Source: a virus. Taken from it: DNA of 64,000 nucleotides. The notes beneath the pieces were generated by a model. It worked only from the letters and a program-made list of their open reading frames with translations, was not told where the DNA came from and ran no database searches. How positions within the stretch are numbered: the stretch's first letter is position 1; every line of letters begins with the position of its first letter. Of this stretch, positions 190-53,888 are shown piece after piece. The stretch lies in IMG/VR virus record IMGVR_UViG_3300031548_000001, positions 1-64,000 of that record; one strand, written 5' to 3'. The position numbers and the translations under genes are program-made.

Positions 190-1470
190 ATGCCAACCAA
201 ACGCGAACCAAGAACCGGACCGAATGCGAACCAAGGGTCCATTCGTGGTGTCCGCCTCTTGCCTGAGCGCGTCGGCCGGGAAAATCCCTACGGGGTTCAG
301 TGGCCTGAAAAGGTCTGGAGTGACAAGCAGCAGAAGATGGTTCGGAAGGTGAAGACGCTTTTCTTCCCCACTACCGAGGCTCGCGAAACCAAAGCTGCCG
401 AGCTTCGCGATGCTCGCCGCAGCCGCATGGTCGTCGCCAGTGTCAGCCGCGCCGAGATGGAGGAATACCGCGCCTTCAAGCAGGCCATTGGTAACACTCC
501 ATGGCAGGATGTGGTCGCAGGCTGGAAGAGCCGCCAAATCGAAACCGGCGCGGTTACGTGCAGCCTCACGGTCGAGGCCGCCGCAAAGATCTACGTCGCT
601 CAGGCCGCTGTTCTGCTGAAGAAGGAAAAGATCAGCGGAGGATATTACCGTCACCTTGAGCAGAAAATCGGAGAGCGGTTCGTTGATCAATTTGGTGACC
701 TGACGCTCGATAAGGTGACCACCGCCGACATCGTCACGTGGATCGATGACTTCGACGAGGTGCAGAGCGACGACACCTTCGACAACTACAAGAAGCACGT
801 CCGCGCCTTTTACTCCTACTTCCTTAACCAAGAACGTCCGGTCATTCGCGACAATCCCGCGGCCCGCATCAAGAATCGGAGCGACGGCATCGGCGAGGTG
901 AAGATCATCAGCGTAGCCCAGACGGCCCAGCTTTTCTGGACGGCACTGAACTACGTCGACGCGAACGGCGTGAAGAAGTTTCTCCCGGCGATAGGACGAC
1001 TGGCCATGGAAGCATTCATTGGCCTTCGGTTCGCGTCCGGTTGCCGCCTGGCCAAAGAGGACATCAACCGAGAGGATAAAGGCGTAACGCTTCCCAAAAA
1101 AAAGCTGAAGACCAAGCGCCGACATTACATCGATGGACTGCCCGAAAACGTATGGTCGTGGGTGGACATCACGCCCGACGAATGCTGGGACCTGACGCCG
1201 CGCCAATACCTGAGTCTGAAGAGCGAGCTTTTCACGGTCGCCCGTGTTCCCCATCCGCAGAACTGCCTCCGTCATGGCTTCGCAACCTACCATGTTGCGG
1301 CGCATAAAGACGGGGGGAAGACTGCTTACATTCTGTGTCATCGTGACCAAGATGAACTATACGAGCATTACAAGGGGAACGCGACTGAGGCGCAGGGTAA
1401 ATTGTATCAGACGATTACGCCTGAGACGGTGGAGTTGATCCGGCAGGGCGCGGTGCTGGTGCCGGTGTGA
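190..1470 (+). CDS. int: Tyrosine recombinase / phage integrase
   Basis: GLR, LRHGFATYH, CH and HY catalytic-type motifs; adjacent to the tRNA; start uncertain. Confidence 0.9.
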   Translation: MPTKREPRTGPNANQGSIRGVRLLPERVGRENPYGVQWPEKVWSDKQQKMVRKVKTLFFPTTEARETKAAELRDARRSRMVVASVSRAEMEEYRAFKQAIGNTPWQDVVAGWKSRQIETGAVTCSLTVEAAAKIYVAQAAVLLKKEKISGGYYRHLEQKIGERFVDQFGDLTLDKVTTADIVTWIDDFDEVQSDDTFDNYKKHVRAFYSYFLNQERPVIRDNPAARIKNRSDGIGEVKIISVAQTAQLFWTALNYVDANGVKKFLPAIGRLAMEAFIGLRFASGCRLAKEDINREDKGVTLPKKKLKTKRRHYIDGLPENVWSWVDITPDECWDLTPRQYLSLKSELFTVARVPHPQNCLRHGFATYHVAAHKDGGKTAYILCHRDQDELYEHYKGNATEAQGKLYQTITPETVELIRQGAVLVPV

Positions 1471-2773: not shown

Positions 2774-5257
2774 CTACGGGTTTTTACAAATCTCAGGAAT
2801 ACAGATAGTCTCCGTCGGTGCCTGTCTCATTATGATTTGGCCATTAGGCAGGCTGATCCTGCGCTCACTTGCTGATGTGAGGTTCAGGTATTTGCGGGCT
2901 CGCGTTATGGCCACGAACAGAAGACGGCGCTCCTCATTGAAACCAGCCGCGTCGGCACTGTGAAACATCTCAGTCCCGGCCACGATCACCGCATCCCATT
3001 CCTCACCCTTGGCGGCATGCACAGTGAGCACGTTGACTCCACGCGTGGACTTGGTTTCGGGCGACTCGCGCAGCGCGGCGATCAGCTCCTCGATGGAATC
3101 TGGCCGGTAGAGCCGAATTCGCTCAGCCATCAGCGCGTGGCTGGCCTTGCTTATGCCGTAGCGCGATAGGTCGGCATTGAGCGACAGGATCACTCCCGGC
3201 GAAGGGAACGACCACTGCGCAGTGGGGTGGTGGCCTTGGTCTCTCTGGCACATGACAAAGTGCTCGGCCACCGCTTGGTCTTCTTTGAGGTGTTTGGCTT
3301 GAAGACGGGCAAATAGGCGAGCCATGGCCCAGCTGGACGGGGTAGCAATGAGCGATAGCATCTGAAGGAGCAACGGCCAGTCCTTCGGCTTGCGCTCAGG
3401 CTCGACGTCGGCGACCGGCACACCGGCTTCGCGCACCGCGTCGCGAAGCTCGTTGGCCAGCCGGTTTGTCCGGCAGAGCACGGCAACTTCATGCGGAGCA
3501 ACGCCGCCGGCGATGCGTTGCTTTGCGAGGCTAACCACTTCCATCCGTTCTGCCGCATCGGTCGGGCATGCCTGCGAATTGACCTCACCCTCGAGCTCTA
3601 CCGCCGAGATGGTGTCCTTGGCGATACGGCCCGCGTTTGCCGCGATCACCGAATTGGCGACGTCGCAGATGCGCGAGGCGCACCGGTAATTCAGGCCCAT
3701 GACGTGGCGAGCGAAGCGCTTGTCGTTCCAGTAGTCGGTGACGTTGGCCGGCCGGGCGCCGCGGAAGCCAAAGATGCTGTTGCAGGTGCCAATGCCGTTC
3801 GCGACGTATTTGTGATATTTCGCGATGTCTAGTGACCAAACGTAGCCGGAGTATTGGCGAGAAGTCACTGTGATCGGTGCCCATGCTCCACCTCGGTTGT
3901 TTCGGTCAAGCCGGTCTGGGCATATTGGAACGTGCATCACGCCATCGATGAGATTGCAGGCGCGAATTTCCTGAACTGTGCGCCGCGTTCTTGGTTCATC
4001 CTTATCGAAAAGCGGGAACTCCAGAAGGCGACCATGTGCCTCCAAGCAGAGCCGTGCACGGGCCTTTTGGTCGTGGATGTTGGCGAATATTGAGTCTATT
4101 ACCGATTGGGTGAAATGACGGCAGTTTTTGGCCGCCTTGAAGCACGCTTCAGGCAAACCAAAATTAGCTGCTACAATCTGTTCGTGCGCTGTGGCCTCGG
4201 CTTCTGTCTCATGTGTTTTCAGCACCCACGCACTATCAGCGCCCTCTTGTCTCATGCGGAGCCCAAGGCCAATCACCGCTTTTACCGAGCTACCGTCCGA
4301 ACGAAAAAACATGGTTTTCCCAACGCGGAAGTGATCACCCTTCCGCATGATATAAGTGCACCACGTATCAACATTTCTACCCTTGCCCGAAAGCCATTTT
4401 ATTAACCATCGGTGGTTTGGAGTGCAGTCGGTAGATTTACCAGCGGCGGTGACTGTGATCATGCTTCCGGAGTAGCTTCTTCGGCTGACTGCCCTCACGA
4501 CACCGCACTTCAGAAAGGTCTTCTCGCGTCTAGCGTATGTAGTGATCTGTTCTCCCACTCGCAAATCTTCTATAGGCTTCTCCGAAACTCCGTCAGCCAA
4601 GCGCACCATCGTGCCAGCTGGTTGGCACTGGTCAGGATCTCCGACCACCAGCAGCTGCGTAGGATTGGCAGAGAGGTAGATCTTGGCGTCCTCCGGGCCG
4701 GAGTCCTGAAACTCGTCAACGAACCAGTGCGTCCACGGGTTCTCAAAGCGCAGGCTTTCGATGCAACGCAGGCCCTCGCGAAGGACCATGTCGAAGTCCA
4801 GCATCTTCTCCGATCGCATGAAAAGTCGGTAGGCTCTCACGGCTCGCAGTGCCGGGCTCATAAAATCCGAAAACTCATCGAGCGATCGTGCGGCCTGCAG
4901 TTCGGCATCGGTGCCTTTGTAGCCCATCACCTTGGCGTGACGCGCAAGGAACTCGGCAGCGTCGTCTTCGCCGATCAGCACCCAACGCGGATCGTCACGA
5001 CGAAGCAGCTGCATCATCATGCCGTGGAGCGTGCCGACGTATCCGACATGGCCAACGGCCTCGGCGAGACGACGGCGCATGACCTTGGCGCCGATGTTGG
5101 TGAACGTGACGAACGCCATGTCCGCCGGGTTTACACCGGACTCTTTGAGTGCCTTCGCCCGTTCGACGATGACGCGGCTTTTGCCGGACCCAGGCCCAGC
5201 CAGCACGATGTTCCACGGCGCTGGCGAGGTGACGACGGCGAGTTGATCAGGATTCAT
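2774..5257 (-). CDS. UvrD/Rep-family SF1 helicase containing an intein
   Basis: AGPGSGKS, TFTN, VDEFQD, GDPDQ|SIFGFRG, NYRC, TVHAAKGEEW and LLFVAITRA motifs. Confidence 0.95.
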   Translation of the reverse strand: MNPDQLAVVTSPAPWNIVLAGPGSGKSRVIVERAKALKESGVNPADMAFVTFTNIGAKVMRRRLAEAVGHVGYVGTLHGMMMQLLRRDDPRWVLIGEDDAAEFLARHAKVMGYKGTDAELQAARSLDEFSDFMSPALRAVRAYRLFMRSEKMLDFDMVLREGLRCIESLRFENPWTHWFVDEFQDSGPEDAKIYLSANPTQLLVVGDPDQCQPAGTMVRLADGVSEKPIEDLRVGEQITTYARREKTFLKCGVVRAVSRRSYSGSMITVTAAGKSTDCTPNHRWLIKWLSGKGRNVDTWCTYIMRKGDHFRVGKTMFFRSDGSSVKAVIGLGLRMRQEGADSAWVLKTHETEAEATAHEQIVAANFGLPEACFKAAKNCRHFTQSVIDSIFANIHDQKARARLCLEAHGRLLEFPLFDKDEPRTRRTVQEIRACNLIDGVMHVPICPDRLDRNNRGGAWAPITVTSRQYSGYVWSLDIAKYHKYVANGIGTCNSIFGFRGARPANVTDYWNDKRFARHVMGLNYRCASRICDVANSVIAANAGRIAKDTISAVELEGEVNSQACPTDAAERMEVVSLAKQRIAGGVAPHEVAVLCRTNRLANELRDAVREAGVPVADVEPERKPKDWPLLLQMLSLIATPSSWAMARLFARLQAKHLKEDQAVAEHFVMCQRDQGHHPTAQWSFPSPGVILSLNADLSRYGISKASHALMAERIRLYRPDSIEELIAALRESPETKSTRGVNVLTVHAAKGEEWDAVIVAGTEMFHSADAAGFNEERRLLFVAITRARKYLNLTSASERRISLPNGQIIMRQAPTETICIPEICKNP
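3779..4627 (-). mobile_element. Intein (283 aa) in helicase motif III
   Basis: Begins CQPAGT; block B TPNH; block F VWSLDIAKYHKYVANG; ends TCN before Ser+1; removal restores GDPDQSIFGFRG. Confidence 0.92.
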
Positions 5258-5663: not shown

Positions 5664-5721
5664 TTCGGGATTCGTTTCGGGTTCGGGTGTCTGACGGACA
5701 TCAAACAATCCGAACGATGCA

Positions 5722-15226: not shown

Positions 15227-15502
15227 TCATCCGATGAGGTTCTCAAGGTGGGCGTCCTTGCGGATCTGATTGCGATCGCCGCGCCACCGTTCGAGTTCGC
15301 TGATACGGACTTCACCATCCCTGTCCGTGGTGTAATAGGCCTCATGAACTTCGGCTGTGTTGAGCGAACGACCGACGTTCCCGAAGTCGGTCTCGAAGTC
15401 GTAGCGCGTGCCGAGCTTGGTGTCGTGAACGGCGGTGATGATGGCGTTGCCGTGGACGCGGCCGTCACGGGTGAATAAGTGCTGTCCGATCTTGAGTTTC
15501 AT
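15227..15502 (-). CDS. Hypothetical phage protein
   Basis: MKLKIGQHLFTRDGR...ETDFGN; ATG behind a leader. Confidence 0.7.
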   Translation of the reverse strand: MKLKIGQHLFTRDGRVHGNAIITAVHDTKLGTRYDFETDFGNVGRSLNTAEVHEAYYTTDRDGEVRISELERWRGDRNQIRKDAHLENLIG

Positions 15503-15530
15503 TTCGATGTCGTTTCGGGTTTCTGAAAGT

Positions 15531-15627
15531 TGGAGCCGCATACCGGAATCGAACCGGTGTCTGCGTGGACTGACACGAGGGTTTAGGCCCGATGCCACGC
15601 TGTCTTTCCTCGTTGGACTACTGCGGC
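15531..15627 (-). ncRNA. tRNA-like RNA (97 nt) with an enlarged anticodon arm
   Basis: Acceptor GCCGCA/TGCGGC plus T-CCA; D stem GTC/GAC; perfect T arm ACCGG-TTCGATT-CCGGT; GCGTGG/CCACGC stem closing 26 nt. Confidence 0.85.
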
Positions 15628-15636
15628 GAAAGTTGG

Positions 15637-17685
15637 TCAGGCGGCCGTCGTCGCGGATTCCTCTTCCGGCAGGTAGGCGCTGATGTCGTTCGTCTGTGAA
15701 AGCACCGCCAGCACGAGGGCGCGGGCGAGGTTGCGGGGAACGGCGTTGCCGATCTGCTTCACCTGTTCCGTCTTCGTGCCGGTGAACTTGTAGTCATGTC
15801 GGAAGCCCTGCGCCTTCGCCAGTTCATGCGGCTGGAGCATGCGAAACCGGATGTCCAACTGGTAGCGCTCGCCGTTGATTACGACGATGGGACGCACCAA
15901 TGCGTGCCGGTCGTTGCATGTCACCGTAGGGAGTGGATCGTCGATCGCGTTGGGCGTTCCGTTGCCGTAGTATTCGATCAGGAACGGTTCAACCAGCGCG
16001 ATGGCGCCAGAAGTGGCTACGGTGGGAGCAGGCTGCGATACGGGACGAAGCGCACCATCGGACTGCTGCGGGAGCAGCGATGGCTGCACCAAGGCGCGAT
16101 GGTCGCGCGTGAGAACGGTGCCGAGCGGCTGGGAGACGCCACGGGCCGGACAGGAAGGACCACCGGCGCTGATGACGAACGGCTCGATGACTGCCACGTC
16201 GCCACGGTTACCAGCGACCGCTGGCAGCGGGTTCTTAATGTCGAGCGGTGCGCGATCGCCAGCGTGCGCGGTATGAACAAGGAAAGGCTCTGCCAGGCCG
16301 AGATGCATTCCGGATGCCGTCACGGTCGGCGCGGGCTGATTCACGTCGGCTGCGTCGTTCGTGCCACGAAACTTTACGAGGAAAGGTTGGGCAACGCCAA
16401 GCTGAACTCCTCCGGCCGTGACCGTAGGGTGCGGTTCATCAACCGAGCGGGGGCGACGATCCTCGGTCCCCGCGACTTTTACGAGATAAGGCTCGATCAA
16501 TGCCGGTCCGCCTTTTTGTGCCGTAACGGTCGGAAGTGGATCCGCGATGTCGTGGGTGCGTGGAGTCTGTCCCTCGCGTTCACCGAACTGAGCAATGAGG
16601 AAAGGCTGAGCCAGCGCGATGCCGCGGCTTTCGGTGGTGACCGTCTGGAGCGGCTTGTCCACGCTGCGCACGCGATCTTCGCCAGACTGCTGCGGAATGA
16701 GGAAGGGCTGAGCGACCGCCATCGCGCCACCTTTTGCCGTCGTGACAGTCGGGAGAGGCTTTGCGGCACTGCGGACGCCGCCGCCGTGCTCCATCGTGAT
16801 GATCATCGGCTCGCAGAGCTTCGGGCCGCTGCCTTCAGCGACCACGGCACCGAGTGGCTCATCAACGCCCTTCGGCGTCGGGTTGCTCTGCTGGGGAACT
16901 ACGAACGGCTTCAGGCCGAACTTCTCCAGACCGGCCATGATGCGGCGCATGGTCTTGTCAGACAACGGACGCTCGCGCTCGTAGATGCTCTTCCCAGGCA
17001 GTGACCAGTCGATGACGTGGTCCCGGGCTGTGCGCCACGGTGCTTTCTTGCCGAAAAGGTCGCCTTCCTTCGAGTTGGAGTGCGTCGGGTCCGGCCACAT
17101 GATCTTGCGGCGACCACGCACGAACTGCACGAACAGGCGTTGGCGCGTGGTGGGATCGCCGTAGTCGGCTGCGCAGAACACACGGCAGTCGGACTGGTAG
17201 CCGCAGGCCTCAACCGCCGCACGCCAAGCATTGAACAACTCGCCTTTTCGCGAGGCCAACGGCTGGCCATCCACACCAATCGGGCCCCACGAGCGGAACT
17301 CCGGCACGTTCTCCACGAGGATGACGTTCGGCCGAAGCGACTCGGCCCAGCGGACCACGCACCATGCGGTGGCGCGGCTCTGGTCGTTCACCGGCTTGCC
17401 GCCGCGGGCGACACTGTGATGCGTGCAGCTCGGAGATGCCCAGAGGATGTCGAGCTCACCTTCTTTGAAGAGCTTTTGTGGGTCGATGTCATCGACGGAC
17501 GTGCAGAGGTGGCGCGAGGAAGGGTGATTGGCCGTGTGGGTAGCGATCGCCACATCCCAATGGTTGATTGCGGTGAGCTGGGCGGTGTTGCCCAGCATCT
17601 CAATAGCTTCGATTGCACCGGTGGAGGTGCCGCCAGCTCCACAGAAGAGGTCTGCGATTTGGATGACTCGGTTTTGTTTTCTCAT
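15637..17685 (-). CDS. DNA cytosine-5 methyltransferase with an internal repeat array
   Basis: DLFCGAGG, ASPSCTHHS, VENVPEF, RQRLF and QIGNAVP motifs; repeated PxxPxPTVT...EPF units. Confidence 0.93.
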   Translation of the reverse strand: MRKQNRVIQIADLFCGAGGTSTGAIEAIEMLGNTAQLTAINHWDVAIATHTANHPSSRHLCTSVDDIDPQKLFKEGELDILWASPSCTHHSVARGGKPVNDQSRATAWCVVRWAESLRPNVILVENVPEFRSWGPIGVDGQPLASRKGELFNAWRAAVEACGYQSDCRVFCAADYGDPTTRQRLFVQFVRGRRKIMWPDPTHSNSKEGDLFGKKAPWRTARDHVIDWSLPGKSIYERERPLSDKTMRRIMAGLEKFGLKPFVVPQQSNPTPKGVDEPLGAVVAEGSGPKLCEPMIITMEHGGGVRSAAKPLPTVTTAKGGAMAVAQPFLIPQQSGEDRVRSVDKPLQTVTTESRGIALAQPFLIAQFGEREGQTPRTHDIADPLPTVTAQKGGPALIEPYLVKVAGTEDRRPRSVDEPHPTVTAGGVQLGVAQPFLVKFRGTNDAADVNQPAPTVTASGMHLGLAEPFLVHTAHAGDRAPLDIKNPLPAVAGNRGDVAVIEPFVISAGGPSCPARGVSQPLGTVLTRDHRALVQPSLLPQQSDGALRPVSQPAPTVATSGAIALVEPFLIEYYGNGTPNAIDDPLPTVTCNDRHALVRPIVVINGERYQLDIRFRMLQPHELAKAQGFRHDYKFTGTKTEQVKQIGNAVPRNLARALVLAVLSQTNDISAYLPEEESATTAA

Positions 17686-53680: not shown

Positions 53681-53888
53681 TGAGAGCGGGAGGATTTGAA
53701 CCTCCGAAGGCTGTAGTCCGATTCCCATTCTGGAATCATTCTCCTTTGCGTGAGCGGCGGGACGCTTTTACCACGCAAATTAGCGGAGAATTTTGGCCAG
53801 CCCTATGACCCGCATCCTGCTATTATCTGGTCACTGCATTCGACCTATACGTTTCGTTGCCTACCGCGTATGCCTGTGCCACGCTCTC
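53681..53888 (-). ncRNA. Large tRNA-like RNA (208 nt) with a multi-hairpin domain replacing the anticodon loop
   Basis: Perfect acceptor GAGAGCG/CGCTCTC-A-CC; T arm GGAGG-TTCAAAT-CCTCC; GTAG/CTAC stem enclosing ~145 nt of hairpins. Confidence 0.8.

Follow-up and report, generated by a model that had tools for sequence, protein, structure and literature searches.

A non-decoding tRNA-shaped element between two early genes of an Opitutaceae prophage: a candidate mRNA punctuation signal

The tRNA genes of phages are mostly interpreted as supplements for codon use, or as substitutes for tRNAs that host defence systems have destroyed, and known non-decoding tRNA-like elements include t-elements, viral tRNA-like structures and tmRNA domains. 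The window analysed here, a 64,000-nt stretch of an IMG/VR virus record (IMGVR_UViG_3300031548_000001, positions 1 to 64,000), carries between two cistrons a gene with the body of a tRNA and a long hairpin in place of the 7-nt anticodon loop, and it raises the question of what such a unit is and what it may do for a prophage. A first-pass annotation, made from the sequence alone, had read the RNA as a non-decoding tRNA mimic that might serve as a decoy for anticodon nucleases or other tRNA-sensing defences, as an aminoacyl donor, or as an mRNA-processing signal. Our analysis upholds the non-decoding part of that reading: neither the element nor its relatives possess a 7-nt loop, no bulge-helix-bulge (BHB) motif is present, and the tRNA body is kept through compensatory changes.

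The features of the locus are collected in Table 1. In a search of positions 15400-15760 with laxer filters, the element matched the Rfam tRNA model (RF00005) with 33.5 bits (E 2e-5, model positions 1-71), against a gathering score of 29 for that model, and showed 28 nt between the stem halves GCGUG and CACGC where the model expects 7. ARAGORN and Infernal had been named as checks, and their answer was divided: the Rfam model supported the element at the score given, but ARAGORN with default settings did not report it and recovered it solely with the intron option. The default ARAGORN run and a whole-window Rfam run with gathering filters each gave the same tRNA-Ala, at 14-89, as the sole tRNA and left the element unreported, so elements of this kind are probably under-counted. 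The tRNA body itself is real and above chance: its score exceeds the Rfam cut-off, and a homologue sharing its D and T arms turned up independently.

Table 1. Features of the tRNA-shaped element and its surroundings, in positions of the 64,000-nt window
Feature	Position	Strand	Evidence or remark
tRNA-shaped RNA gene, 97 nt including CCA	15627..15531	minus	Rfam tRNA 33.5 bits; cloverleaf minimum-energy fold
Acceptor stem, 5' strand	15627-15621	minus	
D arm	15618-15602	minus	
Extended anticodon arm	15563..15600	minus	sequence, Rfam alignment, fold
Outer helix GCGUGG/CCACGC of the anticodon arm	15600-15595 and 15568-15563	minus	
26-nt insert enclosed by the outer helix	15594-15569	minus	
Variable loop, 4 nt, AGAC	15562-15559	minus	
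T arm	15558-15542	minus	
Acceptor stem, 3' strand	15541-15535	minus	
U73	15534	minus	
CCA	15533-15531	minus	
5' copy of the 9-nt direct repeat CCAACTTTC	15628..15636	minus	directly after the methylase TGA
3' copy of CCAACTTTC	15525..15533	minus	overlaps the CCA end, runs into the leader AGAAACCCGAAAC
Integrase	190-1470		adjoins tRNA-Ala(GGC)
C-5 cytosine DNA methyltransferase, upstream cistron	15637..17685	minus	PF00145 E 1.7e-31; phrog_116
91-aa protein of unknown function, downstream cistron	15227..15502	minus	phrog_9905 E 1.8e-7
Leader of the downstream gene, AGAAACCCGAAAC...ATG	15503..15524	minus	

The stems had been described as intact, a description that holds fully for the T arm, which is perfect (ACCGG-UUCGAUU-CCGGU, with the loop UUCGAUU), and in part for the other two: the seven positions of the acceptor stem form six Watson-Crick pairs but include a G7-A66 mismatch, and the D arm has its three pairs and G18G19 but also a C13-A22 mismatch. 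U8 and A14 are likewise present. Both the discriminator U73 and the absence of Y32/U33 were confirmed. The CCA is encoded as stated, but it forms part of a flanking 9-nt repeat and is absent from the relatives. At minimum energy the RNA folds into a cloverleaf whose anticodon arm is long, being built from the 6-bp outer helix, three further pairs (CAU/GUG) and the inner hairpin GGG-CCUAAA-CCC that the first-pass annotation had foreseen, with a 5-nt 3' bulge (UCAGU) inside the insert; the outer helix encloses exactly the 26 nt that had been quoted. Since this long hairpin replaces the 7-nt anticodon loop, and U33 with it, the element cannot read codons. The fold energy z-score is -1.4, and modest fold z-scores are usual for single tRNAs. 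Two other RNA classes were considered: ARAGORN found no tmRNA, the only related match being of the T arm to permuted tmRNA at 11.3 bits, and a YrlA or bacterial Y RNA was rejected because the element has no Rfam match except tRNA and its ends form a tRNA acceptor stem, whereas the ends of a Y RNA form the Ro-binding stem.

The record, an IMG/VR provirus of 95,020 nt, holds a prophage of about 94.8 kb. A perfect 26-bp direct repeat, at 74-99 and at record positions 94894-94919, overlaps the 3' end of tRNA-Ala(GGC) and marks attL and attR, so that the prophage is integrated in this tRNA gene. Opitutaceae genome bins named Rariglobus and Opitutus contain this very tRNA-Ala sequence, and the host is therefore bacterial. 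A single relative of the major capsid protein was found, 43% identical, which leaves no close phage for comparison. As a side observation, the window also encodes a UvrD-like helicase of 827 aa (2774-5257, minus strand) that is interrupted by a weak match to an intein-splicing domain (residues 220-489, E 0.003).

On the minus strand the gene order is methyltransferase, element, 91-aa ORF and a PAPS-reductase/DndC-like gene, with the methylase stop 10 nt before the 5' end of the element and the next start 28 nt past the CCA. Since no sigma-70-like promoter was detected in 13-19 kb, the element is most simply part of the operon transcript. A CCCGAAA-based leader (yAGAnA-CCCGAA(A)C...ATG) precedes most minus-strand genes of the phage, and this pattern favours the ATG at 15502 as the real start of the downstream gene and places the element between genes; the CCCGAA leader of that gene had been put a few nucleotides beyond the RNA, and CCCGAA indeed starts 11 nt past the CCA. 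The 91-aa ORF matched only its own sequence among 5.8 billion proteins and nothing in IMG/VR; a 3,058-nt contig carries the same ORF. At 80 IMG/VR loci with the neighbouring PAPS-reductase-like gene, no tRNA-like element was seen upstream. Minus-strand instances of the leader include window positions 5681, 12093, 15519, 17708, 19262, 24642, 26744, 43818 and 58889; the fuller form is yAGAnA-CCCGAA(A)C(GAAyCCGAA)ATG, in which CCCGAA is frequently repeated and a Shine-Dalgarno-like GGAG is lacking, and a similar AACCCGAAAC leader occurs in the prophage of genome G263 (L162, ~8040). The CCCGAA leader may be a lineage-specific translation or processing signal.

A covariance search had also been proposed in the first-pass annotation, and it returned two clear relatives; with a possible third from pattern scans, these lie in other Opitutales prophages. 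R1, a single-sequence covariance model of the element, was run on 151 Opitutaceae genomes, in most of which the best normal-length match was tRNA-Cys(GCA), at 45.9 bits. The host tRNA-Cys(GCA) of Opitutaceae shares with the element U73, a 3-bp D stem with a 13:22 mismatch, a 4-nt variable loop and a nearly identical T arm; it differs in its D-loop sequence, acceptor stem and entire anticodon arm, the element having no exposed GCA anticodon. Judged by this comparison of sequences, the body of the tRNA-derived element is closest to host tRNA-Cys(GCA). The same model gave 36.3 bits to a relative of 101 nt in G056 (loci L102/L110); this relative folds into a cloverleaf whose acceptor stem has 8 bp, agrees with the element in its D arm (GUCC-AAC.GGAA.-GAC) and T arm, and carries as its anticodon arm a wholly different 42-nt structure. 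The G056 relative lies between DUF2303 and ASCH genes, on the coding strand, in the early region of its prophage, and a similar methylase is encoded 2 kb away. Its DUF2303 neighbour has one homologue, 49% identical, in G070, where the sequence downstream is unrelated. A normal tRNA-Arg(CCG) (69.3 bits; L110 16104-16175, minus strand) was noted 6 kb upstream of this relative and may be the attachment site of the G056 prophage.

R2, a two-sequence covariance model built from the element and the G056 relative, was run on ~360 Opitutales genomes and found the second clear relative in G263 (L161/L162), from another Opitutales family. It scores 43.0 bits against the Rfam tRNA model, with 18 nt replacing nine positions, is identical to a copy in an IMG/VR provirus (L179), and lies on the coding strand, with RecT, SbcC-like, exonuclease, repressor and replication-initiator genes as neighbours; it does not sit tightly between ORFs, as ~150 nt of non-coding sequence follow downstream. 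L167 is a possible member only, with 14.4 bits and irregular T and acceptor stems. Each relative has a different anticodon arm, none with a 7-nt loop, and ARAGORN called none of them, even when introns were allowed. In both the element and the G263 relative, the letters GCAU precede a hairpin of three G/C pairs whose 6-nt loop contains UAA, an arrangement that could, from these two sequences, be the relic of a Cys anticodon loop with a hairpin insertion.

The family is tiny, with three clear members from the ~360 Opitutales genomes searched with R2 and from pattern scans of IMG/VR, metagenome and genome collections. No further member was found in the likely host genus (24 genomes), the G056 genus (4) or the G263 family (16), exact D-arm/T-arm patterns had 0 matches in viral, genome and metagenome collections, and blastn against 50,697 phage records returned generic T arms only. 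Patterns that joined the T arm to CAACTTT(C) retrieved mostly ordinary tRNAs, chiefly tRNA-Cys and tRNA-Leu, that happen to have the motif after them, and L167 and L179 were the only results that were not ordinary tRNAs. The same phage carries a second oversized, anticodon-less tRNA look-alike at 53681-53888 (minus strand), and its match to Rfam tRNA, at 15.7 bits, is confined to the 3' acceptor and T-arm part; neither R1 nor R2 detects it, and no kinship in sequence with the element was seen. Separately, ARAGORN reported a 96-nt 'tRNA-Ile(UAU)' in the IMG/VR loci L163 and L176 (~1374-1469 of L163), which is unusual and class-II-like, in that a long insertion resembling a variable arm lies between its anticodon and T arms.

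Covariation was scored on a model-based alignment of the three clear members over 14 pairs of the acceptor, D and T stems; the anticodon arms of the members could not be aligned. Standard pairs occupied 95.2% of these stem cells, a value that, like the others here, comes from three sequences. Both sides had changed in 7 of the 14 pairs, a result that 0 of 500 shuffles reach, although any three real tRNAs would covary, so that this is no proof of selection after the loss of the anticodon. Shifting the partner by 1-3 columns lowered the pairing to 29-43%. The stronger point comes from the comparison of the element with the G056 relative: their D and T arms are near-identical, and their acceptor stems are mostly different in sequence yet fully paired. 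The discriminator base and the CCA are not conserved in the family.

The flanks of the element offer evidence of another kind. A perfect 9-nt repeat brackets 94 nt of it, and these are the only two minus-strand copies of CCAACTTTC in the 64 kb. As the 3' copy supplies the CCA, the encoded CCA is weaker evidence than the first-pass annotation had assumed. When the element and one repeat copy are deleted, the sequence reads TGA-CCAACTTTCAGAAACCCGAAAC...ATG, which is close to three other leaders of the phage, the matching leaders having the form CCAAyyTyAGA-ACCCGAA. Because the deletion restores a typical leader, the element looks inserted, with a 9-bp duplication. The 9-nt duplication suggests a recent insertion, and a neutral passenger fits it equally well. 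CAACUUU follows all members on the 3' side, with a similar motif on their 5' side: AACTT-CAC stands before the G056 relative and CAACTTTCAC after it, CACTTTTC before the G263 relative and CAACTTTG after it, and CAACTTTCAC after L167. The flank motif has no other occurrence in 20 kb and 17 kb of the relatives' prophages, and an encoded CCA is found in none of the relatives. A flank common to several loci is unlike random target duplications, and this points either to a site-specific insertion or to a motif that is part of the unit and has a function. The motif was also seen 3' of ordinary tRNAs in the phylum: at G324:C1:42510-42655 (L192/L193), two tRNA-Gly(GCC) genes 114 nt apart have identical T-arm/acceptor ends, and both are followed by CCAACTTT. 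As regards mobile elements in general, a flanking target-site duplication is present; a MITE- or SINE-like element was rejected by copy number (one copy in the 95-kb record, one per positive host genome) and by its termini, as the acceptor sequences differ between members.

Among the roles proposed at the outset, the mRNA-processing signal is the best anatomical fit, since the element lies between cistrons, its single-stranded flanks are conserved, and the hosts have both RNase P RNA and RNase E/G. What RNase P reads in a substrate is the stack of acceptor and T arm together with the elbow; the anticodon plays no part. An element of this shape within an mRNA should therefore undergo a cut at the 5' end and trimming at the 3' end; with the acceptor stem, the T arm and the D-loop/T-loop elbow intact, host enzymes should treat it as a pre-tRNA. 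The hosts encode a type-A RNase P RNA and an RNase E/G protein. Our leading explanation, which we hold tentatively although it comes near to an even call, is that of a non-decoding tRNA-like punctuation element cut from the early mRNA by RNase P and RNase E, in which transcription, cleavage and benefit to the phage are what we infer. The element, lying in the intergenic leader of an early operon for DNA modification and replication, would be co-transcribed with the flanking genes; RNase P would cut its 5' end, 10 nt past the methylase stop, and the single-stranded trailer CCA-AC|UUUC would be open to RNase E or to 3' trimming. The polycistronic mRNA would thus be split at the element, with a new 5' end just upstream of the next leader, and a stable tRNA-shaped RNA of ~97 nt would be released whose long anticodon arm could not reach a codon. 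In vivo, the cuts of RNase E lie in single-stranded RNA and are marked by a U at the second nucleotide downstream (PMC5222698), and in E. coli tRNA precursors the first RNase E cuts fall 1-3 nt past the CCA (PMC2190699); by its letters, CAACUUU would fit as an RNase E site, since AC|UUU has a U at +2. Precedents exist in mRNA-tRNA co-transcripts cut by RNase P (PMC2241853) and in tRNA-like t-elements that define mRNA ends (PMC1920247). Like a t-element, the present unit has a tRNA-like fold without a usable anticodon arm and lies between cistrons on the coding strand, as does the G056 relative.

Several other explanations have to be set against this one. It is very improbable, in our judgement, that the gene is a genuine decoding tRNA whose insert of 21-28 nt is removed or tolerated, whether as Leu(CAG) or as Cys(GCA) with the insert 3' of the anticodon. 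The intron option of ARAGORN does give a tRNA-Leu(CAG) with a 21-nt intron at position 32/33, and the GCAU on the 5' side of the insert in the element and the G263 relative, together with a body resembling host tRNA-Cys and its U73, would suit the Cys alternative; but the Leu(CAG) solution has the loop G-U-CAG-U-C, with G32 and U37, and a 4-nt variable loop, whereas bacterial Leu tRNAs have a long variable arm. The host is moreover a bacterium of the family Opitutaceae, and no BHB motif (3-nt bulge, 4-bp helix, 3-nt bulge) appeared when all registers of the arm were checked by hand. The tRNA-splicing endonuclease domain PF01974 was absent from the phage record and from three host-lineage genomes but present in four archaeal controls, and RtcB was not found in the phage. 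Group I introns are self-splicing and roughly 200 nt or more in length, and the insert, correctly called too short for one, is about tenfold below that size and matches no Rfam intron family. The relatives, finally, have unrelated inserts and no common anticodon. An archaeal-virus origin with a BHB intron was rejected on account of the Opitutaceae host and the lack of a splicing endonuclease. An inert passenger, somewhat unlikely in our estimate yet the main rival, would be either a defunct phage tRNA(Cys) gene or a small insertion of tRNA origin in a leader, with a 9-bp target duplication, that is drifting and may still be cut by RNase P at no benefit to the phage. It would account for the perfect 9-nt repeat and for the leader, nearly identical to three others, that its deletion recreates; one mismatch each in the acceptor and D stems, a fold z-score of only -1.4, the rarity and patchiness of the family, and the lack of a close phage relative to show persistence over time are in keeping with it too. 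What it leaves harder to explain is that three members, in different prophages and beside different genes, keep paired stems and the elbow while their anticodon arms are wholly different, that the element and the G056 relative have nearly identical D and T arms and acceptor stems diverged with full compensation, and that the flank motif is common to the loci, unlike random target duplications.

An acceptor-T minihelix suffices for RNase P, and a pure processing role therefore leaves the retention of a long, stable anticodon-arm hairpin unexplained. This retention would be better explained if the excised RNA acted in trans as a tRNA mimic that binds or soaks up a host factor sensing the body, the elbow or the 3' tail, such as a defence nuclease that cuts the tail or acceptor, or that displays the variable arm as a regulatory hairpin. 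We regard such a role as unlikely. The elbow and acceptor are kept and the anticodon arm, though variable, stays a stable helix; the element belongs to the early region, in which genes for counter-defence and control are clustered; and there is the second anticodon-less look-alike in the same phage. Moreover, tRNA-targeting defences that act independently of the anticodon exist, according to two reports (PMC12851939, PMC13056530), and phage tRNAs counter tRNA-targeting defences (PMC10264068, PMC11555353), but these known counter-measures are functional tRNAs, not decoys. Further points against the mimic are that no conserved partner gene accompanies the members, their neighbours being a methylase and the 91-aa ORF, DUF2303 and ASCH genes, and a RecT module; that the discriminator base and CCA are not conserved; and that the insert has no significant antisense target in the phage, where the best candidate is a 10-mer, of which shuffles give ~5. 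Of the narrower roles first suggested, the decoy for anticodon nucleases is improbable in an RNA that lacks an anticodon loop, and an aminoacyl donor is not favoured, since the relatives conserve neither the discriminator base nor the CCA. A more far-reaching idea, which we think quite improbable, supposes a mobile mini-cassette of tRNA shape which enters CAACTTTC-like leader sites with a 9-bp duplication and spreads among Opitutales phages, its RNA serving as a decoy or sponge for immunity that senses the tRNA body or 3' tail, as one lineage of a wider, undescribed class of anticodon-less prophage tRNA look-alikes.

Full-text literature searches returned no description of this family; they did return general remarks on phage tRNA-like structures (PMC10690425) and on unusual cloverleaves (PMC5389517). 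A conserved tRNA look-alike that does not decode suggests that phages put the tRNA shape to a third use, possibly as a cutting signal within operon mRNAs or as a stable RNA to which tRNA-binding proteins attach, and the flanking duplication prompts one to ask how units of this shape travel from one phage genome to another. Among the small phage RNAs that do not decode and that tRNA-processing enzymes release from longer transcripts are species 1 and 2 of T4, the C4 RNAs of P1 and P7 and the CI RNA of P4, of which C4 and CI are antisense RNAs with known targets; the element has no sequence or Rfam similarity to any of these, and no antisense target of it was found. With the phage tRNAs that escape defences (PMC10264068; PMC11555353) it shares a phage-borne, tRNA-derived nature, a place among accessory or early genes, and a concentration of change in the anticodon arm, but those are functional decoders with 7-nt loops and the element has a structured insert of 26-28 nt. 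The E. coli mRNA-tRNA co-transcripts (secG-leuU and the metT operon; PMC2241853, PMC2190699) resemble the locus in having a tRNA-shaped unit within a polycistronic transcript and an A/U-rich trailer right past the CCA, the place of the RNase E cut, although their units are real decoding tRNAs and the element lacks an anticodon loop. The plant-mitochondrial t-elements (Forner et al. 2007, PMC1920247) are also tRNA-like, have no working anticodon arm, lie beside or between mRNAs, and have been proposed to direct the RNase P and RNase Z-type cuts that make mRNA ends. They are organellar, however, while the present element belongs to a bacterial prophage, is flanked by a short direct repeat, has a cleavage that is predicted, and, unlike them, combines a complete, near-canonical D arm and elbow with a long, stable anticodon-arm helix.
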